DNA of 47,469 bases from Vermamoeba vermiformis (GCA_045837725.1 JBEWZL010000018.1:1-47469); one strand, 5' to 3'. Shown: positions 7,960 through 46,919, counted from the first letter of the stretch. The notes: generated by a model not told the origin, from the sequence alone. Numbers and translations: made by a program.

Positions 7960-8835
7960 TTTTGTTGGATTTGGTAAGTTGTTTTGTTGTTGTTCGTTCT
8001 TTTGTTTTGAACTGAATGAATAGACCGATCCAAATCATTCGCTATTTATACCTGGTTCTTCCACCAATTATCTTAGGTTTTGTAATTTCAATCGGGCAAC
8101 AGGCCTTTGTAATTGTCCTCTTCAAATGCGATTCAATCAGAAAAAGTTAGGATCTGCAACAGCTGTTGCCACCTCTTAGAATAGATGTTTAACGTGCTTA
8201 TACTGACCTTTATTAAACAGATATATTATCACAAGGTCGGATCAGTCATCTCCGAAGTATTTCTGACAGATCTTTTGACTTCGACTGAACGCAACAAAAT
8301 ATTCGCTAATGGAGATCCTATGCGATATAACATATACCATTAATATTGCCAATATCATCGATGCAGTTAGTCGCGTTCAACCAAGTCTCGAGATAGATTT
8401 TTTGGACGGATGCGAAATTCAGAAAAAACTTCGAACGACATCTCTCGTGCTTGAAAGTGCCGAACTTGTGGCTATAATTCACTATAACTCAACGTCAAGG
8501 ATTCCAATGCAAATGGGGATGTTGAAGTTGATCAACTCGTTAATCGGCCTTGCATACTTTGACACTCCAATAGCATTCAATTAACGCAATGTAATTTCAG
8601 TCGAACATGGAGACAATAGTTGATATCAAATAAGTGCTCTTTAAATATGAGTGATATGGAAACGAATGTATGGACTTCGCTTCCTAGCAAGTTCTAGGAT
8701 TAATGCCAGGGCTGAAAAAACGTCGCCCGATTCGTCAAACGCAAAGACAGCACCACTCGTAAGTTTAATAAAAATTCGCACAAGTTATTCTAACTTGCTT
8801 ATTAGGACTTTATTGGTTATACGCTAGCTCGCACT

Positions 8836-12538: not shown

Positions 12539-14648
12539 TTATTTTCTACGGAACATGTCAAAGACATTTTTAATCGTCGATTTTACCGTTGGTGTCACTA
12601 AACGAATAATAGTCGTTATTAAATAATACTAATAATAGAATTCAAATTTAACTGCCTCAACTTACCTCCGAGCTCATCCAAATACGCCAGTATGTTTACA
12701 TGACCTTTGCTCTTGGCTTTATGATACAGCTCGGGACTAAGCTTCATCTTACCACAGTGCACCATGTAACGCAACAGATCGACGTCATCACTGGTCGATT
12801 TATCGATGGCATCAGGTGACCACCGATCTTTTTATTGAAGAAAGTTAATGCACCGTGAAAAATGTCGAATGACACGTGTCACTTTTTGACACTTTGACAC
12901 TTTTGACTTACATTTGTGTTCGTGTGCGTATTTATAGCAAAGGGTATTGCCATATTCACAACCAATGGAGAATTTGATGCCTGTAGTTGAAAATTTAATC
13001 GCAATTAGTAGGAAGCGAAAATAACAGTTTTTCTGACACCAAATGTACCTTGCTTGAGCAACCAAGCCATTGACGACACATTCCTCGATTGAGTTGCAAT
13101 AACGACATGCTGTTCATCGAATTTAGCGCCGTGTTGTTTCATCCATTCAAGCACTTTGAGTGTTTCTACAGACGCAAGCGTGAGAGGTAGTCTCAACATG
13201 GAATCCTCGATCTCGAACTTCTCGATGTTGTACATGTACTCCAAAAAATCGACACCATAGCGATAGGTCAACCCCATTTCGACGTACTCAGCGTGAGTTT
13301 TTAATCTCGGTCCGAGATTTTTCTCCATGACGTACTTCACGCAATCAAAATTTGCACTAATAGCGGCCTGTAATACATCTATTCGATCTCCGTCTTCATA
13401 CTCTTTAGTATCAGTATCATAATGTTGCTCTTCAATGCACCACTTCAAAAATTCTAGATCTGCGGATTCGGCCGCTAAAGTGCCAAGAGCGTTGGGTCTG
13501 TTCACCTTGTTCACCATTGTTAAATACTCTAATATGTCCTTTTGAGCGTTTTCAGCTGCTCTTGAGAAGATTTCGGGCAATAAAACAGCGTCAGGTACAT
13601 GTTCCACGAGATATTTCAACACATCCAAAGATCCGACTGTTTCGACGGGGTATGGAATTTGCGCGCCATTCTCTATCAAGTATTTCAAGCAGTCTAAAGC
13701 GCCGTGTATTATTGCGTAGTATGCTGCTTCGCCACAAGGTGCACCGTTTTCATGGGCGTACTTCAACATCTCCAAGTCGTTCGCTTGCACTGCATTCTGG
13801 CTCGCGTAAGTCTTCCATTCGAGTCCTCGCTCATTCAGAAATTTCGCCGCTTCAAGGCTCCGAACAATGATGCAGTTCACGGGACAGCCTTCCTCCACGG
13901 CATATTTCAAGCACTCGAAACGATTGCAATTTGAAGCCATGTGTGGTATATTATCGTCCCATGGATATCCGTTCTCGTGCAAGTACTTTAAGACGTGCAC
14001 GTGTCCTGCACTAGCTGCAATACAACACAACGTTACGCCGTGGTTGGTCTTCATGTCAATCTTGTTGCTGATGTTCTCGAGACAGTACTTGAGCATTTCT
14101 AGGTTGCCAATGCGGGCTGCTTCATTAGCCACTTGTAGGTTCAATCGACATCCGTTATTTCGCAGAAATTTCAAGGCCTCAAGTTGATTGTTCACAGCAG
14201 CGGTGATTGCGAGATCTGTCGTGAAAAAGAAGTTCAACGACTTCAAATACTCCAAGCATGATATACTGCCAAGCTTGATGAAGTAAGCAGCGCATTCATT
14301 CTGATCGAGAACGAAGTGTTTGGGAAACGGATGCAGATCCAAGTGCGAGTTGAACAAAGACTTGCATGAAGATCGAAGCATTAAAGCATCGAAATGATTA
14401 GTGTGGCTTATGATAATCTTCATTATCTCATTTGGCACTCCTAACAAGCCCTGGCTATCCTAAAAAAATAAAATTAAATATTGAAAATTTCGCAAAAAAA
14501 TTGCCGTGGTGCTAGTTGCTATTAGGGCGCCAAAAATGAAACAACTAAATTAAATGACAAATTTATTGCCTACTGAAATTAAATTTCGGTTGATCGGGAA
14601 TAAAAATTACATTTTAAAATCCTTACCTGCGTAGCCTTGACCGGCCAT
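12539..14648 (-). CDS. Ankyrin-repeat protein with an F-box-like N-terminus, multi-exon
   Basis: Repeated AA..GNLEMLKY / LKYLHENGYPWD / LKYAHENGAP units; N-terminal VPNEIMKIII..LRSSCKSL. Confidence 0.8.
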
Positions 14649-24669: not shown

Positions 24670-25266
24670 AACTTTCCTGCATTATTAATCTCCTTGTAAT
24701 ATAGCTTTGTAATAAATACCTGTTTCCTTCAAGATATTCGATCGCGATTTATTTCGGATACAGATACAACAACCATGTAGATATTAGATTTGAATAATAC
24801 AGAAAACGATAAACTCCAACTAGGAATTATCAAATTGAGCGTTTCTGGGTCGACCCAATTACACATCCGAGATGCACGAACAACCAGTACTGCTTGCTAA
24901 ATAAGGTAAAATAAGGTACATAATTTTAACCTTTTTGTCTTTTAAATCTTTTTGCCTGCAGATTCAGATCATAATTTTGATTTTTTTTTAAATGAAATCA
25001 AAATTCTATTCGGTTTACTACACGTGTGCAATTTACGCAAATTATGTCGGAAAAAATTATTAACGATTTTTTAGGTAATTTCGTATTTCGCGGTTGTTGC
25101 TGCCCAAGCAGCTGCGGAATTGCGGATTTAGAGAAAAAGTCAAATTCCCTAATTCCGCTGGTACAATATTTAATGATCAAGTGGCTTATATCGCTCAAAT
25201 AATCTGTTAGAGTAACGTAAGCAAACTATTTCTTTTGCTAATCGCCTGTTGACTCGAATCTGGGAG

Positions 25267-28200
25267 ATGGCGAACGGATCTCAATTTCTGCTGCTTACGC
25301 TCAAAAATTTCAAAATCAAAGGACGTAATGGCTGTGGTACTGCTATTGAAGTAATATTTCCAGCCATTTGCTTGGCTTTCCTAATCGCTATGTTCGTCAT
25401 AGCGGTGCCTACCGAACCGAACTACGATCCGATTCCAATTGGCTTTCAACCGGTCAATTTAACATACGGACCTAATGTCGATTCGGTTCGTAGTATTCTG
25501 CTCGCTGTTGTGTATGGACAAGAAGATCTGCTGCATCCAGTGAACACGGAAGAAGAGATGGAAGAACTGATAGTCGATACAAAGAACAATATTACTGCAG
25601 GTAATTGATTATTAGTTATTTCCTATTAATTTACTTTCGGAACAATATCATTCGATTTTGATCAAAAATTGACGTTGTGAATCTAGGAGTTTTCTTTCGG
25701 TTGACGGAGGATGAGCTGGCCAACGATAAGCTCTCCGATAACGTTACCTATAGTATTCGAATGCAAGCCTATAGCGTGGCTAGACCATCAATTCTATTCG
25801 AATACGCGGCAAATACCGACTCTTCCAAAGCGTTGATGTACTACAGCTTTGTTGCAATCCAAAAGAGTGTGGATCAGGCTGTTATGTCTACAAAAATCCA
25901 AGAAAAGACTGGCACAGCAAGCAACTTAAATCTTCAAGGCTTCGCTACGAGATTTCCCAGACAAGTTCCAGAAACTGAATTGGATGTGCGCTGGCAACTT
26001 CGAAACAGCATTCTGAAGCTTATTGGTGGCACGTGGTTAACATTTTGTTTGCTATTCTCCGTGTATCGCCTCGTTGGCACAATCATCGTCGAGAAAAAGA
26101 CCAAAGTCGTAGATGCAATGCGCATGATGGGCATGCGAGTAAGAAACACTTTGAAATCTCCTAAAGATAGCCACTAATTTATGATACTAGAATGAACTTT
26201 ATTGGGTCACTTGGTTCATCGTCTCGCTAGTTCTTCTCATTCCAATTCTAGTTGCGTGCTCTGTCTTGCTCAAGTACCTCAACTTTTTCCCACTGTCATC
26301 GATTGGTTTAATCTTCATTACTTGGCTATTATACGCCGCGTCACTTATTGCATTTGCAATGATCTTTGCTGCTTCTTTGAACTCGGCTAAGGTAAAATAA
26401 GGGTGCCGTATTTGCTGCAAGTACTAATGTTCGTGCGTATAGAGCTCTGGTCTGATTACTCTGATGGTACTCGTAGTGCTTAGTATTGCAGGAGCAGGCA
26501 TTACAGCCGCAGATATGCACCCAGCGCCTAAAATTGTGCTGTCTGTCTTCAGCCCTGTTGCCTTCAACATCGCGGTCAACATTTTCGCCGAAATCGAAAA
26601 CCTTAAAATGCCAGCAGACGATCACCTATCAGGTAACTATCCTTATAGGCATTATTATCACTTTCACTTATTAATATCAAATTAGAGTACTTTGGTGGTC
26701 GACCGTCGCTTCATTCAATGATCGCCATGCTCGTAGTTGACACGGTACTTTATCTTGTCCTCGCGTGGTACATTGACGGCGTCAAGACAGGTGGTTCCAA
26801 AAGCTCGTGTTTTTGCTGCCGACCTTCGTACTGGGGCAAGCATAAAACTAACGGACAACCTGTGATGGACGAGGAAGAACTTGCTGGTCACCAAGATAAC
26901 GCTGGAGATTTCGAGAAAGTTGATCACTTCAAGCAACCTGTTGTGTCCATTCAAAATTTGCGAAAGAAATTTATGTTCGATGATCAGCCCTTTATCGCCG
27001 TTGACGGTTTTTCGTTGGACATGTACGAAGGCCAGATTCTTGCCTTATTAGGTAATTGTTAGATAATCGCACTAAAAGTCCTTATCCTAATTATATTGAT
27101 AGGTCACAACGGTGCTGGTAAAACTACGTTGATTTCAATGTTGACTGGAAGTTTGGATCCGACATCCGGTGAAGCTGAAATGTATGGCAATAGCCTCACG
27201 AAAGATTTAACTGCCCTGAAGAAGATTATTGGCATTTGTCCGCAATATGACGCTATATGGCCCCAATTGACAGTCTTCGAACACTTGCAATTGTTCGGTG
27301 GTTTCAAAGGTACGAGAAAATTACGTCTTAATTTCTGACACTTTTTTAACTATTGCCATTTTAGGAGTAAAATTTAGCAAAGTTAAAGCTGAAGCGGAAC
27401 AACTCATTCGAGATTTCGAACTTGAAGAAAAACGAGATTACCCTGCTGGAAAATTATCCGGTGGTCAAAAACGAAAGCTGTCAATTGCAATGGCGCTGAT
27501 TGGAGGATCAAAAGTCGTTTTTTTGGACGAACCTTCTGCGGGCATGGATCCTGAAGCTCGACGAGTAGTTTGGGACAATTTAGTCAAACACAAAGAAGGA
27601 CGCGTCATTATTATCACGAGTAAGTCTTAATAGTCACTATTGGAATTAATACGGTCCTAATATATCCTTCATTAGCTCATTTTATGGATGAAGCAGATTA
27701 CCTAGGCGATCGAATTGCCATTATGCGACATGGAAAATTATTGTGCGCTGGATCTTCGTTGTTCTTGAAGAATAGATTTGGTCTTGGTTACACCCTTAAT
27801 TGCGTAAGCAACTGAAATATGAACGATGCTTAATTTTTACATCTTTTAAACACGAAGCGAAATTACTTATTGAAATAATAGTGGTTAATAATTACATGGA
27901 AACTAATGAAATTTCAATAGGTCAAGACACCTACATGCAATATTGATGAGCTAACAGAGTTCTTGAAAAAATACGAGGACGTTCAAATTCTTTCGAATGT
28001 CGGGGCCGAAGCTATTTACAGAATTCCACGGGATGGCTTCCGAAATCTCCCGCGCATGTTAAGTGACATGGAGATTAGCAAAGAATCGCTCGGAGTAATT
28101 TCCTACGGAGTTGGGCAATCTACGCTCGAAGAAGTTTTCTTGGAACTAAATATGGATTCAGATCTGCAAGGAATTTCCGAAGATACGCTCAAAGAAACCG

Positions 28201-30929
28201 TTTTTATTCCAGCTTCTGATTCCTCGAACAAACGACAGCTAAATGCGCTCTTGAACAAACGAAAACAAGTTGCGAAACGAGACGTTAAGTTCTTGTTCAT
28301 TCAGTTCGCAGTGCCTATCATCTTGTGCATTGCTGCCTTTGTCGTGCAACGCTTGATGTTTACCAACACTGTTGGTGGCGAAATTGCCGTGAACGGACAA
28401 GTTTACGGTATGGATCAAGATCTAAAAAAAATTCTTAATTAACTAATTGAATCATTATTAGACGGATTCATCTCACCTTGGGCTAATTCGAATTGTACAA
28501 CCAATTATTTCTCTGCTTTGCCGAACTACACGCCAGAATTGTTCCCGAAAATTTCATTCGATGACGTCACTTCTGTGCTTAGTAACCCCGACACGTACGC
28601 ATCAGGTGCTATTATCAATTATTTCTGTATGTCTGCGGGGCCGACCCAAGTGCTTCAATACGCTCTTTATTACAACGCATCGTTGCCTCACTCTATTGGC
28701 GTTCATCAAAACCTCATCTCAAACGCTGTTCTCAACACAGCACTTAACGGCCTTGGATCCGTAACAATTAACACTATCAACCATCCCGTTGGTAAGTATA
28801 TCATATTACATAACATATTCAATGTATTGATGGTCTATTTAGGCATTCCTATTGATCTACTCACGAACCTCATTAGCGTGTTGATCTTCCTCTTAATTCT
28901 GATTGGTTCGTGCGTACTTTCGGCGTCAATCACCGCGTTTATCTTCCAAGAACGTGAGCTTGGCATTAAGCAATTGCAATTGGCCAGCGGAACTAATGCA
29001 AAGATTTACTGGCTGTCCAACTTCATCTGGGACTTCACGCTGCACATGATCGTTTTCATCGTCATAATCATCGTTACTATTGCTACAGATTATAAGACAT
29101 TTGGAGGAGAAAGAATAGGCGCCGAGGTCATATTGATCATCTTATACAGTTTGTCATCGGTCACTGCTGCTTACTTCTTCACCTTCGTCTTTTCCGGATC
29201 CGGATCTGGCCAGGGTGCCATCTTAGGTCTCTTCCTCGGCCTTAGTTTTGGCTTCTTAACATTCTTCAATGCTGTTTCCGTTGCCGTACCAGGTTCTCAA
29301 GATGCTATGAATGCATTGGGCTATGTTTTTAGAATTATCAGGTACGAGACAAACATTTTTTCACGATACGTTTGACCGACGATATTTTTCAGTCCTCATT
29401 TCCTGCTCATTGCTTCCTTCGGCCAATTGACAAACAGTATCGGCGCCACTACGAAAAATATCGTTACCGAAAACACGGACATTTTTGGAATGTAAGTTTT
29501 TGTTCGGAAATGTCACGCTTATCAGTTTCACTAAATGTTTAATCTAGTAACTATTGGGGCACATCGTTCATCATATTCGGTGGCCAATTCTTGCTTTATG
29601 GATTTTTAACATTATTACTGGAAAATATGCATCAATTCCGCTTGAAACAAAAACGATCTGCAAATCACCACGGCGAACATTCAGTCGATGAAGAAGACGA
29701 TGATGTCATGCGAGAACGAGATCTCGTACAAAATGCAAACCCGAACGATGTTGAGAACAATCTTGTATGGGTCAGTGGGCTGCGAAAAGAATTCAACGGC
29801 AAATCCAAGATCCGCAAAGTAGCGGTCAACAATTTTTCTCTACGCATCCCTCGTGGAGAAAGTTTTGGGTTATTGGGTGCCAACGGAGCAGGTAAATAAT
29901 AATACAATCATATATTTTAATATCCGGATTGACAAACATTTCCTTTTTAGGCAAAACTACTACTTTAAAAATGTTGTCAGGACAATTGTTGCCAACATTG
30001 GGTGAAGTCAGAATCAACGGAAACACGTATGAAAATCTCGATCAGATTTTACAGTCAATTGGATGCTGTCCACAATATGACTCTGTCATTCCTAAGTTGA
30101 GCGGAAGAGCACATCTAGAACTTTTCGCCGAACTTAGAGGTACGCCTATTCAATTCAAATATGACGTACTTATATATGGTATAGGACTTCCCAAGCACAA
30201 GATTCCTGCTATTGTCGATGCGTTGATTGAAACCATCCATTTGACCAAATACGCAGATCGACCTTGCGGAAAATACAGCGGCGGTAACAGACGAAAACTG
30301 TCTTTAGCTCTTGCATTAATAGGTAGGATATATCGCTTAATATTGATTACATAACCTAATATGCATATTAGGCAACCCTCCTGTTCTTTACTTGGATGAA
30401 CCTTCAACCGGAATGGATCCGTTGGCGCGAAGATTTATGTGGAATTTGATTATGGCAGTGCGATCCAATAAGGCTATTATATTGACTACGCATAGTATGG
30501 AAGAATGCGAGGCCTTGTGTACTCGTTTGGGCATTATGATTGGAGTAAGTTAAAAAAACTGAAATTTCGTTGAACTGACCAATCATATCGCAGGGAAAAT
30601 TACGTTGCGTAGGCAGTCCTCAGCACTTGAAGACTAAATTCGGAGATGGATATCGCTTGGAACTGAAGACGGATCTGCAACACGTCTATCAGATCCCTTC
30701 ATTTATTCAAAAGATTTCTCCGGAGGCCAAACTTGTCGATCAACATACAACGCTATTTAATTATGAAATTCCGATGCAGAACTTAACATTAGGACAATTA
30801 TTCGAACAAGTCGAGAACGCGAAGGAGAATTTACATATTGGCGATTACGCGGTCAGTCAAACTACACTAGAACAGATATTTATTACTATGGCGCAAGAAT
30901 ACATTAGGCCACGCGTAGTAGTGGACTAA
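25267..30929 (+). CDS. ABCA-subfamily full ABC transporter, multi-exon
   Basis: Two NBDs ([30 protein letters not shown] and [30 protein letters not shown]), two TM domains, STLEEVF and TTLEQIF motifs. Confidence 0.95.
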
Positions 30930-30998: not shown

Positions 30999-32056
30999 TT
31001 AATAGGAGTAGGGCAAGAGGACGCGATCGATAGTGTGCAAGACACCATTAATTGCAAGGTTATCAACAGTTAAAATGTTAGCGTCGTTCACAGTGACGGA
31101 TGCAGCACCAGGGAATTGAAGTCGTCTGAAAGTTACAGGAGGAATGTTATTGTTGTTAGCGTTAACAGGAGATGCTTGCAATCCATCGTAAAGGCTCGTT
31201 GAGTACACTGGTTTACTGTTCATGAACAAATATTAGTGACTGAAAAGAAATTTCCTGGATGTACTTACCCAGCGAGCACGTGGTACAAGAGAACGTTCTT
31301 TAGAATAGCTGGATCGGCGCTACCGATAGAAGCCAAAATTGGGTCGGTAAAGGCATCGTTGGTCGGAGCAAAAAGGGTGTATTGTGCGTTAGTACTTTGC
31401 AACACTTGATCCAAACCGGTCCTATCCAACAGCGACTTCAGAATTGAGAGTTGAGGGTTCTGAGAGACAATAGCGTAGAGGTTATCAACGGACGGTTGGA
31501 AGAATCTGAGGTCGTTGAGCAAAACTTTGTCGATCGCGTGCAAGACTCCGTTGGATGCTGCAACGTTGGCCTTAATAACTCGTGCGTTGTTCAAGGAAAT
31601 AGCTAAAGGACTGAAGTTCATGAACGGACTGCTCACTTCAAGGTTGATAGCGCTGCCTTGAGTCGTGATCAGAGTGTTGTTATTGTAGTTAGCAAGGGCG
31701 GATGAATGTAAATCTCCAGAGACGACCTAACGTTCAAATTAATATTAATGACAATTTTAATCAATATTAATATTACGTACGTGGTATTCAAGAACGCTGC
31801 TCAGCAGATTCCCATTGGCTGGATCGAGCAGGTACTTCAACGTAGCGGCAGGCACAGCATTGAATGCAGTATTGTTAGGAGCAAAGACAGTGAACAAAAC
31901 ATTTCCGTTCAAAGTCTGGTCCAAACCAGTAGCTTGAAGCAGCTTATAAAGCGTAGAAAAGTTCGGATCGGACTTGATCACTTGCGTCAGCGTCATGAAC
32001 TGAGCAGCGCTGACTGAGATTACAGCCAACAAAAGAATGGAAGTAATAAGACGCAT
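30999..32056 (-). CDS. Secreted fasciclin protein with two FAS1 domains, three exons
   Basis: Signal peptide; FTVFAPNNTAF..LEYHV..NGVLHAIDKVL; YTLFAPTNDAF..LLYHV..NGVLHTIDRVL. Confidence 0.92.
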
Positions 32057-32839
32057 TGTGTGCAGCGTATTGTACGTTGTGAACTGAAATGGCGGAAGTC
32101 TGGCATTTTAAGGTTTTTCGATTCTAATTCTAAATTTGGAAATTGCGCACTATCGCATGATATCAGGGCACATGGTAAAGCGCTTTCTTACGCCTATGAA
32201 GCGTTTTAGATACGCATGCTGATAATGTTAAACAGGGGTTACGACGTCGGTTACTATACCACGGATGTGGTAATTGTTTATGCCTAAAGAATCAGTTCGG
32301 TTCAAATAAAATTGGCTTTCAACAGAGGCCTGATCTTTGTTGCATTTCCTCGGCCTTAATTTTGCAAGATCTCCTCTTGGGGCTGCTTTCGAGCTCAATT
32401 TCAGACCCAGCCTACCTCGGAAATTCCTTCGGACATTTACACTGTTTTTTCCGACCCTCCCAATTTTAGTGATAAATCACCAAATAAGCAAAAAGATAGC
32501 GATACGACTGCTGTGGTCACGCTGCCAGGAATAGTCCAACGAACAGTTGTGCTTCTGTTCCGAAAATGCAGACCAAAAGAGTTTCAGTACTAGTATCAAA
32601 GTGATCCTGTGTTTGATACACGTTTAGGGCAGATTTAATTCGAGGCGCGATCTAATCACGATATCGCTGTCATGGACTTTTGATTCATGGGTTTTCAGGT
32701 GTATCATGAGCTAAGGTGCGAGTCGGTGTCTATACCAAGTGAGTGGCGTAACTCGCTGAAGATGAAGTATCCGCTCAATCTCGAATCTTCCAAGAAGATT
32801 ACGTATTGCGTTATAAAGCACAAGAATTATTTATCAGTG

Positions 32840-37200: not shown

Positions 37201-40200
37201 TTTATTGATGGCATCAATTCGAAGCAAGGGTAATTATTCTGCACTCCTGCGTTTGAAGACTAATTTCTAAACGTCGGCGCTAATTACTTGCACAATAGAT
37301 CTGTCCGCTTTTGGGTTGTACGAAACGCATTTACGGACTTTGGAGGCGGAATCGAGCTTAAATAGATCCCTGTCGGCATACGATTTATACCTATCTTGCG
37401 TGGCTTATCATGGGGTTGGATTTCTATCGTTCGACCAATTCTCCGATCTGCTTCGCCAAAATTTTCAGTAAGTTAAATTTAATCAGGGTCAACAATTAAT
37501 TTCAATTGATAGTGAATACGAAAGGTGCCGAGACACGTATAGGCTGCACTTTTGCGGTGTAAGTTAAGTTTTTACAAACGGTGTAGATCTAAACAAAAAA
37601 CAGGAGGAAATTCGCTGTGGTGTCCAAAATCCCAGTAAGACAACGTGCTACTTGAATGTGTTATTGATTTTATTTTGGAAATTAAAATCGATACACGTCT
37701 ATTTGTCTTACACCTCCTTCTTGCCCGCCTCTGTATTGGATGTGTTCACCCAGCTCGACAGCCAACCTTGGAATGGAGCTTCCGCAGGCAGCTTGCAGAG
37801 ACAACTTGCTGATATTGGCCGGTGGCAAGCCGGACATAGAGACGCACACGAGGTGCTAACTGAACTGCGGTCCCTAGTTCCTGCACTGTCCAACGGTTTT
37901 GGATTTTCTGTTGTGTCGCACATCACACATCGTGGAAAAATAGTCTCAGAACCACGCCACAACGAAGCCCAAGAGATTATTTTGCCCGTACATCAAAGCA
38001 TACAGCAGGCGCTGGTGTGCTTTTTCGAAGAAGAAGTGGAGTTCAGAGTTAAGCAAAGTAACAAAGTAAGAGCGACTTCCAGTTAAAATTTGGTACTAAC
38101 TCTCTTCTAACAATTATTGCAGAGGTGCAAAATGCAACGCATTATGGAATCGTATCCCGATATTTTATTTGTCGTGCTACAGCGTTTCGATGTGACAAAT
38201 GCAAAAGATAACAGCCCCATGGCAATAGATCGAATGTTGGATGTGTCTGGAACCTGCTACATTCTTTTTGCTGTCATACTTCACAGCGGTACTGCGGGAT
38301 CTGGTCATTATAAAATACTTGTCAACGAAGAACTGAAAATGAATTGGGTCCTTTATAATGACGAGCAAGCAGCTACGGTGAGTTATTGTATATTTTGAAC
38401 GTCATTATTAATAACTAACGACAAATTAGGTCAACAGCGACGAAGCGTTAGATCAGATTTCGCAAGGCTACGAAAGTGCTTACTTGGTTTTTTATGTTAA
38501 GCAGGCCAGGGCTGGCAGTGTACTGACTGCCAGTAATAAAAGAAGTTGCCGATCACATCGCAAAAGAAAACAGCCAGAGGATGGCTGGGATGAAGACTGG
38601 CAACGTGTCGGTAGTCCAAGTACGAAGATAAACTTGAAAAAAACTTGCAGTCTGTAATTAACAATTCTATAGAGAGAAGGAAAGTTGACGAATCCTCGCA
38701 GAGTAGTTTTGAACTACAAGAGACGGCGGAAAGTGACTTGCAAGAAAGCGACTTGGAAGACGCAGAAGAATCTGTCCAACTTGACAATGTTGTAGCTTCT
38801 GATTTCGATAACCCGTCTGTTGAAGAAATGGATAAAGCAACATTGCTCAATTCGGATGTCAAAATTGACAAGCCGAAGTTTAGGCAGGTCTTTAGATTTC
38901 GCGTCGTCGATGCAAGTATCTTAATTCTATAAAACCGAAGCTAATTCGAGCGCAGGACGCATATGAGTGGTTAATCCATTGGACCTTCAAAAAGGCATTG
39001 TATTTGAATTGGGTCAAAGAGCGGCAGTTTTCTATTACACTCCGAAAAATGCTACGCAAATTTCAGCTATCCAACGCAGACGAACCGTTCGGTTGGACTG
39101 ATCAGTCAAAACAAATTGAACCTCCGAAAACTATTGACTATGAATTTGACGAATCGGCTTGCGGTCCTGTTTCACCTCCTAACGATACATCGCCGCGATC
39201 TTTGTTTGAGCTATTCTTTCCTCGTATGTTTGATTTTGCCTTTTCAACTCAGTAGCTAACGAGGTCTCGTTTAGCTGAACTCCAACAACAAGTTGTCGAT
39301 GAAATCAACAGATTTGCTGTTCTAGATTTTGACACCAAGCAGAAAGAGCGGATAGATATTCGAAACAAGAGAATTGCTCGCTTCAAATCTTGGGCAAAAG
39401 AAAAAGAAGTTGAATACCCGGATTTAGTGCGCAACGACAGCTGGAAAACAAATTTAAAAGAGCTTGACGAATCAATGTCGTTTACCTATAATTTTACCAA
39501 AAACGATCGAGAAGTGCACGATTCATTGCGGCAAAATTGGGAAGATATCACACTGGCAGAATTTCAGACGTTTATTGGAATAGTCATTGCAATTCGTTGC
39601 ATAGCAAGCAAGAGATTTGAGGATTATTTTAATGAAAAAGATCCAAAATACGGCAACGAATGGATTGCGATGCATATCTCTCGGGCTCGCTTTCGTCAAA
39701 TACTAAATAACTTTCATTACGATGTTGATTTGGTGCTTGCTAAAGTTGCGGAACTCTGTCGAGACCACTGGAATCCACATCAACGGGTTGCTTTTGATGA
39801 GACAATAATGCCGTTTTTGGGAATGTTCTACGGTTTGGTATGAATTAACTAATAATTTACATTTTACTAAACGAAACAGAAACACATTCCAACAAAGCCA
39901 CACCCAAACGGAGTACTGTTACACATGCTCGCCGACTCTAAGTATTTCATTTGGGACTTCGACTTCTTTCTTGGCTTAATTCTTCCACCAAAGTGAGATC
40001 TGCACACTTTAGCAATAACGCATTGTTAACGCGTTGATAGGTATCAAATTATTGAAGTTGTTAAAAAACTGCAGCAAAAGCAAAGGCACCACGTTATTAC
40101 TACCGACTCAAAATGGGGCTCGGAGGAACTGGCTAGAGTGTTAGGTAACTTCTATCAACTCGCGCTGCTTTTTACCTCCTTTGTTTAGATGAACGACAAT

Positions 40201-40462
40201 GTCTATGTTTACTTTCGTGCAAGAAAAATTCTCCATCCTACATCTTCGACAACCTACACACACTCGCAAAAGAAGTTGGACAGTCCGGTGCAATTTATTG
40301 TAAAACAGATCAGTCAACAATAGCAGCCTGCTCTTTTCGTGACTCCAATGCCACGATGAACCTTATTTCAAACTATGTGTCGGGTAAACTGTTCTATTCC
40401 AATAAGTTGTTATTTAACCTGTCTTAGACAAATTTCATTGGTACAAGCTGGGCCCAAAAGTC
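34205..40462 (+). CDS. 5' part of a multidomain piggyBac gene: His-Me-finger-like, AlkB-like, SRA-like, USP (C19), transposase N-part
   Basis: Manual GT-AG splicing gives one frame. AlkB: KRLYAVYG, MGLHRDDD, MQALLKHRV, RWVATVR. SRA-like: FHGAP, GCSSIVL, PIEVV, FVYTGTWFV. USP: GVQN..TCYLN, RDAHE, LQRF, HSG..GHY, YNDE, AYLVFY. Transposase: SLFELFF, ISRARF, AFDE, PTKPHPNG, TTDSKWGS. Confidence 0.75.
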
Positions 40463-40553
40463 GGGACGAACTTTTAACAAGGGGAAAAATATCCCACGTA
40501 TAAAGTGTACTGTTCGAACTTTTACTGTAAACTTTACAGTATAAATAAAAAAT

Positions 40554-43345
40554 TTATTTTAAAGGCCGTAAAGGTGGAATACAAATATAAATAGTGTTTG
40601 TGTTTGCTCCCACCGAGTTCTCAAACAAGGCAAGAGAGTGTGTTACAATCCACTGATGTGCAATAAGCAGTGTTTTGTATTGCATAATATCAAACACAAC
40701 GTCCATTATTGCAAAGGAGTATTGCACTAAAGTGTAGTGTTGATGAGCTTGTTCTGGAACGGAAGCTGAAATGAGAATTGCACGCTTTTTCGAGGCAGCA
40801 GGCAACTTGACATTAGTGAAAGCCTTAGTAACTGTAGGAATGGTGTAAGTGTAAAGTTTACAGTTATACAATAAAGTTTATAGTACGTACGGTAATAAAA
40901 GTAGACATAAAGAGGAGATGAACTAGACCCTCTAGTGTTACCAGAACCACCATACAAAAATGACTTGAGTAAAAAACCCTGGCTTGTAAGCCAGAGTAGG
41001 AATTTGCCAAGCTTTGTCTCCCCTACAAGCCAGGTGAGACAAATAAAAAGTAGAGTGAAGCAACTTACACGCATCATTTTTGTCGTAGATTGTGGTGACA
41101 GTGTCTCCAAACTCATGCGAAAACTGAACAGCAGAGGAAGGCTTGTGTTCGATTTGATCTTCTTCATCACTGAGATCCCCAACCTCTCCAGCATCATAGC
41201 TGTCAGCTGATTCTTGATCACGCCTGAAAAATTGTTAATAATTGCAAAACAAGGTTGACTAAACTTACAAGACTTTTTTGAGAGATTGAACCTTATCCTT
41301 AGACTTTGCTGAGGCAGGCTTGTCTTCAGAAACCTCCATCCGCCTTTTGAGAATAAGTATAAAGTGTAAAGTTTACAGTTTACAGTGACTTACGTGCCCA
41401 AGGCTTTCTTTTTAGGCGAAGTTTTTGGAGCTTGCTCTTCATCAACATCCATGGCACTAACAAAAATTAGATCAGCATTTAAGTTCGGTCAAAATGAACA
41501 CTCACGACTTCTTTTTAGGCTTAGACTGAAGCTTATCCTTAGATTTTGCTGAGGCATGTTTGGAAACCGTCTTCTCCCTGAGAAGAATTAAATTCATTAA
41601 TTGCAAACTGGTGGCATTAATGAACTTACGAGGTGGACTTTTTTGGCTTGGTTTTTGGTGGAGGTTGTTCATCATCTGAAAGCTCCATCACCCTGCGTAC
41701 AATTAGTGTAAAGTGTAAAGTGTAAAGTTTACAGTAAAAACTTACGACTTCTCTTCATCACTTGCAATTCTTTGCTCTGCTACAAGTTAGTGTCTGGTAT
41801 GCGCTTTATCTCATGAAATACATACCAACTTCGAGAACTCTCTTTTGTTCTGCTTTGTCAACACTAAGTTTGCCCCCATGAATGTCAGTAAAACGCACTG
41901 CATCCAGCACAGTATCAAGCGTGATCTGCTGGGGCTTTTCAGTTGAAGGTTGCAGGATAATGGCACCTGAAGAAGCAGTGCGTACTATTTTCAACCAACT
42001 AACAGTTAAACGTGATGATGCCAACTTCTTCTTTGGTGGAACAGTCACCACCCCGTACCAGATCTGTTTTTTTGGACCCAAAATTGCCACAACAGATGAT
42101 TTATGTACTGTAGCCAAATCATTAGCAGCTGCATATGGCTCTGCAGAGGCTCCTTGTAATCCTAGGCGATAAGGCGGTAAGTGTAAAGTTAGTATTATAA
42201 ATGCAAACTGTAAAGTGTACAGTGTAAAGTTTACAGTTTTTACCTTCGCGCACGTTGGGTTTTTGTTTCCGCCCCGAACTGTGTTCACTCTGTTCACTTG
42301 ATTCCTGCTCGCTGGCATCATCAACAACTTGCTCTGTGAGGACCGTATCTCCATCGTCCTTTGCAGCATCATTGCTGCGATCTACAGGCGCGTGAAAGCT
42401 TACCGGGCAATTGCTTGGAACGGGAGGTTCCAGGTGCAATAGGACCCCCCTCTGCAGTAGTATCGATGGTTTTCCCATCGTTTTTTGAACCATCTCTGCG
42501 GCGATCTACAAGAGATTTGAGATTTAAAATTGAATGTAAGTTTGACAATCACTTACCAGGTGAGTCTTCGGAACGGGAGGTTCCAGGCGCGGTAGTGCAC
42601 TCCTCTGCAGTATTATTCATGGTGTTCCCATCATTATTGGGCGCGTTGGTGCTGCGATCTTCGAAAACGTTAGCAAATCTGAGTTCGGTGGATGATCGCG
42701 TGAAAGCTTACCGGGCAACTGGTTGGAGCGGGAGCTTACAGGCACGTTAGGACGCCCCTCTGTGGTATTATCGATGGTGTCCCCATCATTATTGGGTGTG
42801 TTGGTGCTGCGATCTTCGAAAACGTTAGCAAATCTGGGTTCGGTGGATGATCGCGTGAAAGCTTACCCGGTGAGTGCTCGGAATGGGAGGTGCCAGGTGC
42901 GTTAGTACGCCCCTCTGTGGTATTATTGATGGTATTCCCATCGTTATTGGATGTGTTGGTGCTGCGATCTTCGAAAACGTTAGCAAATCTGGGTTCGGTG
43001 GATGATCGCGTGAAAGCTTACCCGGTGAGTGCTCGGGATGGGAGGTTCCAGGCGCGAGAGGACGCTCATCACCCTTATTATTAGTAGTACTAATAGTGTT
43101 GGTGTTGCTGTTGTTGTCGCCATCTGGTTTTAGAAAAAAAAACACATCAGATTTAAAATTTTTAAAAAAGTCAATAAATAATTATAAAAAAATGATATCG
43201 AGTGTATAAATAATATATAAATAATATATATATTACTATTACTTACCTTTCTTTGCTTTTTTTGCTTGAATTGATTTTTCTTCCCCCGAATCTGAATCTC
43301 TTGAGCGCTTTTTCGAGTGTTTGTCGCTTGTGTGTGATCTATCAT
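40554..43345 (-). CDS. Second gene of the nested element: multi-exon charged, low-complexity protein of unknown function
   Basis: Series of minus-strand GTAAG..AG introns joining short Lys/Ser/Asp-rich exons, with globular-looking parts at ~41820-42160 and 40554-41030; start uncertain. Confidence 0.6.
42340..43060. repeat. Tandem exon-plus-intron repeats with a 155-bp period
   Basis: GCTGCGATCTTCGAAAACG at 42651, 42806 and 42961; two more diverged units near 42375 and 42500. Confidence 0.9.
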
Positions 43346-43451
43346 CTTCTGTACGCCCTTTCGAGCGCGTATTGTAAGTAGACATTATCGCCAAGTGCGG
43401 TGTTTGTTCGAGTGTTACGGTAAAACTTACAGTTTAACTTTACGGTAAAAC

Positions 43452-46222
43452 ATGGCAACCATGTCGCAAATTGTACAGGTGGAATGTGACTGTAAAGATT
43501 ACACCTGTTACCAAAAAATTAATTATGGAAAGGCTGGTAATCACAAGGTTTATTATACTTGCCAGCTTTTCAATTACAAAAAAAACGCCATCTGTGGGAT
43601 CGTAAAAAGATCCAAAAAAGAAATGAAGCAACACCAAATGGCTCAAATGCATCATGAAGGTATTGTTACAATAGTAATTTAATTAATCGAAACAATTATT
43701 TTTAATAATGTCTTTACCTAGATGTGCTGAAGCTGAGATCCAGCACCACCCTGAAAAGAGACAAAAAAATGTTGGTACCTACTGAAAAACAGCCAAAACC
43801 ACAGCCAGTGAAAATAGATACATCTTCTTCTACTCTGCTATCACCAGCTAAGGAGGAAAAACAAAAAGGTAACGGTCAGAAAGGGCGCGAAAACTTAATG
43901 CAAAGTTTACCCTTATGTTCAACTGTAAACTGTAAACTATACACTTACCAGTAAACGCAGAACCGGATCGGTTGGAGCCAGTAATTATCAATCTTGCTCA
44001 AATGTCCCTAAACAAAGAACAAGTTCCAGTTAGCAAAACGGCAGCAGATGATTTGGCTTCCTCAATCGAATCAATTCTGCCAGTGGAGTACCTTCAACTG
44101 TGGAATGCAAAGCAACCTGTGAATATGCTTTCATATGTCCCAAGACACTGTAACAAGCATCAAAAGGTAGTACTTTGATTCTAGGATTGTTGCTTTTTCT
44201 CACCAAAGGTTACTAGAATGAAAAATGTTGCAAAGTGTCATTGAATGGTTGCAATCTCAGGCACCGCTGCTATGATGTGGCCTCACCATTTATTCTGCAA
44301 TATCATCGCTATTACTGCCATTCCCATGATGTGAATTTCTCCATAATGCAATTAGATCTGCAGGACTATCAGGTGACTCCCCAAATAGTGGTATTTGACA
44401 GAACAGTGGTCACTACTCGATTACTTGACTACATATTCAATACAGTTCCTGATCATTCTTTCAACTTCACTGCACTATCTAGGGCAATTTTATCTGGGTG
44501 GGTTGCAAACTTAACGCACAAGCTTTGAATGGTAAGTGTACACTTTACAGTTTACACTTTTCACAGATCTAACCTCTACAGGCACTGTTTACACATGTCT
44601 TCACCGAAGATGACATTCCCAAAGTACTTCAATCAGTGGAGGATAGTTTTGTCATATCTCCTTCAACTTTAGAAGCACTGTACCTGTTCAAATTTCAGGC
44701 CCAACAAAAATTTTTTCATCAATACACATCTGAGTTGGTTCAGTCTACTGGCATTGTTTTGCGCATTGACCATACTTATAAAATAGCCTCTGCATTGTCT
44801 GCACTCAGTAGTGATGGCAAGAGAGTAAGAATTTCATTAATACCATAAAATGTAATGTTTACACTTTACACTTAGGTGCAGGTCAAAGCCTCCTTATTGT
44901 CAATATTAAATGAACATGGTCAAGTGTTAAGAACAACAGTAGTACCATCAGACGAGCGCAGCTATATGTTCTCTGAATTGAAGGCAATATTTGATTTGTT
45001 ACCTGCTCCTGTAACAACTCACATCTTCACTGATGATAGCCGTAAAGGTATTCACTTGCTTTAAATATGACTGCTCCCTCCCTAACAGCTTTTTAGACAA
45101 ATCTGTAATTGAAAAAGCATTCCGCACAGTGTTTCCATCCGCCAAGAAGATGCCAAAAACATGCCAAGATGTTTGGCATGTAATTCACAGAATTGACTCG
45201 GTTTTAGCCCACAACCACCCAGGTAACCTAACTTTCAACACTTCTTACCAATTTAATTCGTATTGACAGATTACTATGCTTGCAAACGGGATTTGAGTGC
45301 TATATTTGCTCACCTAGCCAACATGGAAGAACCAACAGCTGATTTCCTTGACAAAGAACTCAAATCATGGATGGAGAGCTTCAAAGCAGCAAGCAGGGAT
45401 AATGACAAAGATCTTCAGTTTTTTATTGAAAATTTGGCAGACAAGCTCGCTGGGTATGTTCACTTAAAACTGTAAACTTTACACTTTACACCTAACGACA
45501 CTTTCCAGGGGAGTTCCAAAGCTCACAGACTATCCATCAATAATTACTGACAAAGTTGAGGGTGCAGTAACCAACTTTTTGAATGAAAAAGCTGGCTACT
45601 CGGGAGCTGTTCTGAATTCTGCTTCATTAAAAGAGTACAAGAAAGGCACCAATGCTAATGAAGCATGGCATAAATATCTCAAAAGGTCATCGCCACTGTA
45701 CAGTGGTAGTTGCTCTTATGAGTTGCTTAATGCAATAATCACTCATTTACAATTTCTGTACAATTACAGGTTTGTTACGAACTGTAAACTTACCACTTTC
45801 CACTAACTTTCATTCCTTGTAGCAAAGCCAACAAGACATCAGAAAACCCCACTGTCAACAAATTGCATGACCTGGTGCATCTATCGCTGAAGCTTACTGC
45901 ACCATACCTTCTTAATCCTGGTACCACATTGTCTGAGCTGCTTACATTCAGCTCCATGGAAGATTTAGAATTTTTGAACTATACCACTCGTAAAGCAAAT
46001 TACCCCAAAGTTACTGAGGAGGATGTTCAAAAGTGCATTGCTGGTTTGCAGAGAGTCAAAGCAGAAAAACAGGGAATGTCTTTCAATCTGCTTTACTTCT
46101 TGGCACACGATATTTTTGAAGAAAAATACTCCAAAGGATATGTTAGAAAGATTGTTTATGAAGTAGCCAAGCGTACAGAATCAAACAATCCACGCAAAAT
46201 ACAAGGGCGTGCGAAAAAGTAA
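43452..46222 (+). CDS. DDE transposase of the DxxH class with an N-terminal GRF-like zinc finger; one apparent premature stop
   Basis: CDC..NHKVYYTC..C; LRIDHTYK; LNEHGQVL; IFTD; QDVWHVIHRI; KGTNANEAWH; in-frame TGA at 44526-44528 just before a GTAAGT donor. Confidence 0.8.
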
Positions 46223-46280
46223 AGTGTAAAGTGTGCAGTTTAAACGTGGGATATTTTTCCACACGTTAAAAGTTCGTCCC

Positions 46281-46919
46281 CAAAAGTCGTTGCACCAAGC
46301 CCGGGAGTAAAGGTACGGAACCATCATTTTACGAGCAGCAACTAAATTAAGACAGCATACTCCGGGGAAACCATTGTGTAACCAGGAATACACTTATGCC
46401 AAAGGGTTCGTGGACGAAGCAGCTCGTCAATTGCACACGTACGACTGGCCACATAAGACAAAAAAATGGACAGTTGCAATGTTCCACACGCTGCTTACAA
46501 TTTGTGCTTGGAACGCATTTGTCTACAGAAAATCGTTGCCGGTTAAAGACGAGAATAAGAAGTTGAAAGATTTTCGAAACTTCCTCTCCACGGTAGCCAA
46601 CCAGTTTGCAAAAGTCCAACTTCGTGACAGTAAGCACCCATCAAGGCTAATGCGCTTTCGAGACCAAGACCAGAGCATTGTTATCAAGAAGTACAATCCA
46701 TCAGTTGAAGTATCGCAGTTACACATTGCCGTCCCGCACAAGTCAATCCAACGATCAGGAGGACAGCTACGTTGGTGCCAATTTTGTCCAAAACGTAAAC
46801 GCAACAGATGTTCGAAGTCGTGCCTAGCATGCTCACTTGCTTTTGGTAAACCTGTTCCGGCTTGCCAGGGTTGCATGACAAAACACCAAAATCGTCTCAA
46901 ATGCTCTTCTTTGTTTTAA
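46281..46919 (+). CDS. 3' part of the piggyBac transposase: third catalytic Asp and C-terminal Cys-rich domain
   Basis: KPLCNQEYTYAKGFVDEA..KKW..NAFVY..F; WCQFC..CLAC..CQGCMTKH. Confidence 0.88.

Follow-up and report, generated by a model that had tools for sequence, protein, structure and literature searches.

A cut-and-paste transposon of 5816 bp (positions 40464-46279), lying in a 47,469-nt stretch of Vermamoeba vermiformis DNA (JBEWZL010000018.1; the whole stretch analysed is called the window), carries short phased arrays of the heptamers TGTAAA-n and TTTACA-n. The arrays are located in certain introns of its two predicted genes, a transposase gene and a divergently oriented second gene, in the region between the two start codons, and beside both terminal inverted repeats (TIRs). 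Comparison of the window with a partial relative of the element, the metagenomic locus L001, revealed that the arrays are kept in the same introns despite the saturation of four-fold degenerate sites. Because of this retention, we conclude from the sequence comparison that the arrays are under selection, i.e., functional, and that the selection is purifying and acts at saturated divergence. We propose that the arrays may be double-stranded binding sites for a protein encoded by the element.

Confinement of the motif to non-coding parts of the element

Counted together, TGTAAAG, TTTACAG, and the complement of each (four heptamers) have 29 occurrences in the element, or 4.99 per kb, against 9 in the remaining 41.6 kb of the window, or 0.22 per kb. 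In the window as a whole, TGTAAAG has 20 matches where 8.9 are expected, and TGTAAAC has 22 where 8.7 are expected; none of 100 shuffles reached 20 for the former or 22 for the latter. An unbiased comparison of 6-, 7-, and 8-mers inside and outside the element returned pieces of the motif as the top words at each length, for example CTGTAAAC/GTTTACAG, which is found 10 times inside the element and is absent outside it. The palindromic form TGTAAA-S-TTTACA, with up to one mismatch, gave 11 matches, all of them in the element, with 0.2 expected. The window contains 12 arrays with two or more units in 7-bp phase (shuffle mean 1.48, maximum 4). Eleven of them belong to the element, and the sole array outside is a weak two-unit match at 39856.

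Analysis of the element itself revealed a strong skew against coding sequence. Its 4210 exon bases hold 2 heptamers and its 1393 intron bases hold 23, with 4 more in the 214 bases of other non-coding DNA, which places 27 of 29 in non-coding sequence (Fisher p = 2e-13). Nine of the 24 predicted introns bear arrays (5 of 9 in the transposase gene and 4 of 15 in the second gene), and the other 15 introns hold no heptamer at all. A crude scan of the window for host introns found none with at least two core hexamers among 20 candidates, and the ankyrin-repeat, ABC transporter, and fasciclin-like host genes of the window contain no heptamer arrays. A preliminary description of this DNA had reported clusters of the motif, near 40525, 40850, 41365, 41705, 42180-42235, 43920, 44540, 44860, 45470, 45780, and 46220, in introns of both genes and beside both TIRs, and none elsewhere in the window. 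The sequence scan found the motif at every position named there, the nine introns and both subterminal regions agree with the described placement, and the weak match at 39856 is the only array outside the element. The k-mer comparison that the description had proposed, inside against outside the element and introns against exons, came out as the enrichment given above.

Organization of the arrays

On either strand, each array consists of one to three TGTAAA-n units followed by one to three TTTACA-n units, an inverted arrangement with a 13-bp palindrome at its center. The arrays and related occurrences are the following.

40498-40545, left subterminal cluster, GTATAAAGTGTAC ... TGTAAAc TTTACAg TATAAAt
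40850-40862, array in the final intron of the second gene, itself uncertain
41358-41384, array in second-gene intron 41344-41393
41707-41733, array of four units in second-gene intron 41693-41745 (TRF period 7, 100% match)
42182-42235, arrays in second-gene intron 42162-42243
43415-43451, degenerate array of TTACGGTAAAAC units within the 66 bp that separate the divergent start codons (TRF period 12, 2.9 copies)
43490-43503, sole exonic occurrence, in transposase exon 1, TGTAAAGATTACA
43924-43943, array in transposase intron 2 (43869-43951)
44537-44563, array in transposase intron 4 (44532-44581), with its L001 counterpart at 497-517
44851-44870, array in transposase intron 5 (44825-44875), with its L001 counterpart at 796-823
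45471-45490, array in transposase intron 8 (45454-45508), with the block AAACTGTAAACTTT identical in L001
45782-45804, partly degenerate array in transposase intron 9 (45770-45822)
46218-46244, right subterminal array, GTAAAGTGTAAAGTGTGCAGTTTAAAC, overlapping the transposase stop codon and kept in L001

The motif-bearing introns are 50-83 nt long, with the exception of the uncertain last intron of the second gene (115 nt). The arrays are positioned between the 5' splice site and the branch site and nearly fill the introns of ~50 nt. Eight of the nine have a separate CTAAC-like branch site (CTAAC, CTAAT, or similar) downstream of the array, and CTAAC is absent from transposase intron 5. On the sense strand of the gene in which they lie, the 32 intronic units have C as the spacer base in 25 cases, G in 4, T in 2, and A in 1, and in the subterminal arrays the spacer, read on the sense strand of the gene next to each, is G. 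The arrays of the transposase half are evenly distributed, as only 4 of the 126 possible choices of five introns are as even, and the largest gap there is ~650 bp. Not all arrays are independent, since those at 41358 and 41707 lie within a 349-bp segmental duplication (families D11 and D13). The idea of an RNA hairpin was rejected, the nine motif-bearing introns folding no better than their shuffles (z from -1.8 to +1.0).

Retention of the arrays in related elements

Transposase exon 5, compared with 1.84 billion representatives, gave seven matches, of which three are credible; these are short fragments in single-contig entries from assembled public runs. A metagenome scan yielded ten related loci (L001-L010), among which L001, part of a related element, comprises its right end and the last two thirds of a transposase gene. 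Over exons 5-10, L001 and the window share 297 of 444 residues (67%), and the third positions of four-fold degenerate codons are identical at 38 of 114 sites (33%), which is approximately saturation. The arrays of L001 are located in introns 4, 5, 8, and 9, with none in introns 3, 6, and 7. This pattern is identical to that of the window, and the chance of drawing the same four of seven introns is 1/35. The motif-bearing introns are 63-74% identical between the two copies, 2-3 standard deviations above shuffles, and the introns that lack the motif are 53-57% identical, which is the shuffle level. Within the motif-bearing introns, 71 of 89 array positions are identical versus 49 of 84 other interior positions (p = 0.003). 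The right subterminal array is also kept in L001, together with about 45 bp of the TIR.

The protein P0001 reads intron 4 as the peptide VSVNYTLY, and P0009 reads the homologue of intron 42162-42243, which precedes the conserved domain of the second gene, as LHCKPYSANFTL; both peptides are compatible with the motif, although back-translation is ambiguous and they serve as hints. An intron directly after the exon encoding DHTYK is common to all ten metagenome loci and is the homologue of intron 5. In L005 and L007, which are ~26-28% identical to the window over the aligned transposase stretches, this intron holds AAATGTAAAATTACATTTACATTTACA, a TGTAAA/TTTACA-like sequence. The corresponding intron contains three ATTGGAATA units in L002 and a related TTCCAAT...CCGGAATA in L008.

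Two of these loci contain repeats of other kinds. Upstream of the DHTYK-encoding exon, L002 has an insertion of ~460 bp (770-1235) that resembles a miniature inverted-repeat transposable element, with 28-bp inverted ends (GAGGGTGGGACGGATAGAAATGGAAGGT) and about ten TCGGAGC/GCTCCGA repeats. The TCGGAGC repeats were considered as an instance of the same phenomenon and rejected, as they belong to this separate insertion. In L004, long arrays of a 36-44-bp unit with the inverted pair TTCAAGTG...CACTTGAA (1169-1846, 2237-2427, and 8691-8781) flank the transposase relative on both sides in opposite orientation and look like subterminal repeat arrays.

The two predicted genes

The exon and intron models were built by hand from open frames, GT-AG ends, and CTAAC-like branch sites and are predictions; the transposase model is also supported by L001, in which the introns occupy identical positions and are diverged and the exons are conserved.

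43452-46222, plus strand, transposase gene, 10 exons, 756 codons, 9 introns
40554-43385, minus strand, second gene, ~16 exons, 15 introns, start at 43385, 66 bp from the transposase start codon

The N-terminus of the predicted transposase has a Cys/His pattern that is zinc-finger-like by eye only, and similar patterns are present in L003, L004, and L005; Pfam does not detect the pattern. The second protein is predicted to consist of a basic N-terminus, five tandem modules, a β-rich domain of 111 aa, and Lys-rich SPKK-like repeats. The last two exons, which encode its C-terminus, and the last intron (40827-40941) are uncertain. The five tandem modules are 155-bp units (42389-43125; repeats D1 and D2), each composed of a 102-nt exon and a 51-53-nt intron, and encode an Asn/Thr-rich repeat of 34 residues. 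The conserved 111-aa domain corresponds to 41827-42159. The relatives of this domain are two unnamed proteins (P0008 and P0009 are 57-59% identical over it), and ESM Atlas gives unnamed clusters only. Its AF2 model has a pLDDT of 67.7, and a Foldseek search of the domain against PDB gave no match with E at or below 0.001.

This copy is probably defective, judging by its sequence, because the second gene contains a 22-nt intron relic (42382-42403), which leaves a stop if unspliced, and the transposase gene contains an in-frame TGA (44526-44528). The relative P0001 has Arg at the position of this TGA.

Divergent minus-strand genes were also noted in two of the relatives, at bases 1-250 of L005, where the transposase starts near 363, and as open reading frames (ORFs) at 2665-3892 of L004, where the transposase extends from 4757 onward. 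Profile comparison of the L004 minus-strand ORF with the second-protein domain detected no homology.

Putative binding sites for an element-encoded protein and the alternatives

We estimate a probability of about 0.5 that the arrays are sites at which a protein encoded by the element binds double-stranded DNA. This reading is favored because of the palindromic, phased form of the arrays, their presence in subterminal regions, promoter, and introns, their absence from the host sequence of the window, and their even spread along the transposase gene. The core of each array would be the pseudo-palindrome TGTAAA-S-TTTACA, extended by one to three further half-sites that keep the 7-bp phase, and a multimeric sequence-specific protein would recognize the array. 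The candidate binders are the transposase, with its zinc-finger-like N-terminus, and the second protein, with its Lys-rich repeats and putative small β-barrel domain. The arrays are found just inside each TIR and in the divergent promoter, and along the body of the element they are spaced out in introns, the sole sequence there that is free of coding constraint. Binding along the whole element could mark it for self-regulation, either by activating transcription or by shielding the element from silencing, in the manner of VANC21 in VANDAL21, and may also help to bring the element ends together. With regard to the sense-strand spacer, a G at this position would create TTTACAG and GTAAAG, that is, cryptic 3' and 5' splice sites, and we infer that avoidance of such sites in 50-nt introns can account for the bias toward C.

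Several observations weigh against this reading. A palindrome acting purely at the DNA level predicts no strand bias of the spacer base, unless avoidance of cryptic splice sites is invoked as well. The spacing of arrays in the second gene, where 4 of 15 introns carry them, is not even, with 952 of 1365 possible choices being as even as the one observed. Neither encoded protein matches a known DNA-binding family in Pfam. VIA-align scored the second-protein domain with Z up to 5.6 to PWWP, Tudor, chromo-barrel, SAWADEE, and BAH folds, values that are below the chance-model level, and the modeled fold of this domain is a lead toward a chromatin reader, not a result. The homologous post-DHTYK intron contains no repeat in L003/L006, L004, or L009/L010, and the comparison is based on one full copy and one partial relative. 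The preliminary description had already suggested that the second protein or the transposase binds the motif. The placement of the arrays, their palindromic form, and their conservation in L001 fit this suggestion; the lack of a DNA-binding family match does not, and the C bias leaves room for a role in RNA.

A more specific and speculative version would be an independent, non-plant counterpart of VANC-like whole-element marking, in which a zinc-finger transposase and a Tudor/BAH-like partner bind the intronic palindromic pads and keep the element active or shielded. We regard this version as rather unlikely. If it held, certain tiny introns would be kept by selection for their DNA-binding content and not for splicing.

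The arrays might instead act in the pre-mRNA, where CUGUAAAC/CUUUACAC repeats would bind a splicing regulator or provide reserve branch sites or intronic polyadenylation signals, and would set the amount of full-length transposase and second protein. We consider such a role possible, with the odds clearly against it. It would fit the prevalence of spacer C in the intronic units of both genes despite their opposite strands, the fixed place of the arrays between the 5' splice site and the CTAAC-like branch site, and the restriction of arrays to specific introns, with the identical set in L001. In addition, the TTTACA unit of intron 5 may be the branch site of that intron, which has no CTAAC, as UUUAC fits yUnAy. 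However, the motif is also present outside introns, in both subterminal regions and the promoter, with G as the spacer there, and a role in RNA leaves the TGTAAA half and the palindromic order unexplained. No stable RNA structure is predicted, and avoidance of AG and GT in short introns accounts equally for the C bias. Since eight of the nine motif-bearing introns possess their own branch-site-like CTAAC, CTAAT, or similar sequence downstream of the array, a role in RNA is weakened, and the idea that the array itself serves as the branch site was set aside.

Recognition by a host factor, for example a forkhead-type transcription factor, is improbable; the arrays would then be dispersed enhancers or would allow the host to recognize the element. 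The forkhead core is GTAAAC. In favor of a host factor, there is a degenerate array in the promoter, and the core is kept across lineages that are 33% apart in protein, with a degenerate form at ~26-28% identity. This stability exceeds the fast turnover reported for VANC targets in the VANDAL study (PMC5735166). Against it, the 41.6 kb of host sequence contains no arrays except the one weak two-unit match, indicating that the motif is not a common host element here, and the different ATTGGAATA-like repeats in the homologous intron of L002 and L008 fit lineage-specific partners better. The likeness to the usual forkhead core is incomplete, the motif lacking one base of it.

If the arrays were functionless, slippage-prone heptamer microsatellites spread by gene conversion or segmental duplication, the variation in unit number among arrays and the shared 349-bp duplication of the arrays at 41358 and 41707 would follow readily. 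Such an origin is nevertheless very unlikely, as the same four introns keep arrays and the other three lack them across saturated neutral divergence, and arrays occur in the subterminal regions of two lineages and are absent from the host sequence of the window. Repeated insertion of a small mobile, introner-like intron, of which the motif-bearing introns would be copies, would agree with the shared core and the similar lengths of the nine introns (50-83 nt, apart from the uncertain one of 115 nt). We find this scarcely credible, because all seven comparable intron positions are common to L001 and the post-DHTYK position is common to ten loci, indicating that the introns are old. The motif is also found outside introns, and the crude scan for host introns in the window gave 20 candidates, none with at least two cores.

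Boundaries, insertion site, and classification of the element

The element is bounded by the following features.

40454-40463, left target-site duplication, CCAAAAGTCG, identical to the 10 bp at 46280-46289
40464-40522, plus strand, left TIR (inverted repeat I1)
46221-46279, minus strand, right TIR (inverted repeat I1; L001 comparison; target-site duplication)
46280-46289, right target-site duplication, CCAAAAGTCG

The TIR arms are 60 nt long and 82% complementary, and their outer ~45 bp are kept in L001. The element is inserted in a piggyBac-type transposase gene, with matches to Pfam DDE_Tnp_1_7 at both of its flanks, at 39256-39843 (E 1.5e-11) and 46311-46916 (E 2.8e-06), which also served as controls for the Pfam searches. 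The piggyBac frame is not clean across the reconstructed empty site, and this gene may have its own introns or be decayed. The host sequence has a G+C content of ~39% and, as read from the sequence, introns of ~50 nt with CTAAC-like branch sites. Host genes recognized by eye nearby are a long ankyrin-repeat ORF (13005-14459, minus strand), an ABC transporter gene with many short introns (25216-30929, plus strand), and a fasciclin-like ORF (31265-32107, minus strand).

The TIRs and the 10-bp target-site duplication fit the Mutator superfamily, in which target-site duplications are ~8-11 bp. The transposase motifs DHTYK, TDDSRK...FP...C..WH, and NEAWH resemble signatures of Mutator-like elements (MULEs), of the D...D...E type. 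On the basis of the target-site duplication, the TIRs, and these motifs, the element is called Mutator-like, and not a demonstrated member of the superfamily. It resembles Mutator (MuDR/MULE) in its TIRs, its 10-bp target-site duplication, its transposase of ~750 aa, and its possession of a second gene. It differs in the divergent arrangement of its genes on either side of a 66-bp promoter, in the absence of a detected Pfam family, MULE or other transposase, in its exons and in the ORFs of the relatives, and in the small number of credible relatives (three short fragments among 1.84 billion representatives).

At E up to 1, Pfam searches still matched neither MULE nor any other transposase family, either in nine transposase exons, which are short, or in ORFs of the relatives, which are at most 172 aa. 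Twelve exon and ORF pieces of the nested element gave only chance-level rows (E at least 0.096), all below the curated cut-offs, and none of ten ORFs of the relatives reached the curated cut-off, with sub-threshold, chance-level rows only. The AF2 model of the transposase core is poor (pLDDT 50.5), and the rows of its fold search are weak, including retroviral integrase cores with Z of 4.7-5.1. A word-indexed search of longer proteins with the transposase core alignment A4 gave no match and hence no long homologue, and the same kind of search with the ORF at 45468-45803 gave no match. Scans with the TIR pattern gave no matches in the viral contig collection and none in the genome contig collection.

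Comparison with known systems and significance

Transposon-encoded proteins usually bind subterminal regions next to the TIR, as at the subterminal AAACGG hexamers of Ac/Ds and the 12-bp TnpA motif of En/Spm. The arrays described here resemble these classical subterminal repeats in that several short copies lie in both orientations just inside the TIRs. The classical repeats are confined to the terminal few hundred bases, whereas 9 of the 12 clusters of the present element are located in introns across 5.8 kb. Binding just inside or at the ends is also the point of likeness to AtMu1c, whose transposase, according to a preprint (bioRxiv 10.64898/2026.08.24.746577), binds the TIRs of the element that encodes it and activates cognate copies.

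A closer parallel is provided by the Arabidopsis VANDAL elements. Hosaka et al. (2017, PMC5735166) report that the motif arrays bound by VANC21 lie in introns and in intergenic and terminal non-coding parts of VANDAL21, with the motifs arrayed in one orientation; VANC targets vary considerably between related elements and turn over fast, and VANC genes contain tandem exon and peptide repeats. The preliminary description had taken it as established that VANDAL elements carry non-coding motifs bound by their own VANC, which accords with that study. VANDAL21 and the present element are alike in being of the Mutator or Mutator-like type with several genes, in having a dense short motif in non-coding parts only and sparse elsewhere, and in having an accessory gene with tandemly repeated exon and peptide modules. 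In contrast to the single orientation of the VANC21 motifs, the present arrays are inverted and 7-bp-phased, with TGTAAA preceding TTTACA, and, unlike the variable VANC targets, the motif is kept at 67% protein identity. Further differences are the introns of ~50 nt that are almost filled by an array and the host, judged to be non-plant from its short introns with CTAAC-like branch sites. The layout of the arrays matches that described for the VANC21 targets; binding to the arrays of the present element is putative.

Literature searches for this motif in connection with transposons, or for heptamer repeats in transposase introns, returned nothing relevant, supplements being outside their scope. 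As far as the searches show, intronic arrays of a transposon's own recognition motif have been worked out only for Arabidopsis VANDAL. What is new here, by sequence comparison, is that the pattern of arrays is kept in the same introns of L001, a relative at saturated four-fold divergence. The case differs from VANDAL in the kind of eukaryote, in the palindromic motif, and in the purifying selection seen at saturated divergence. A second, unrelated-looking case would suggest that whole-element marking is a general strategy of transposons and not a plant oddity. The element would also offer a compact test system, as its introns are ~50 nt long and function at the DNA level could be separated from function at the RNA level by simple inversions. 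More broadly, the intron sequence of mobile elements can be constrained for reasons beyond splicing.

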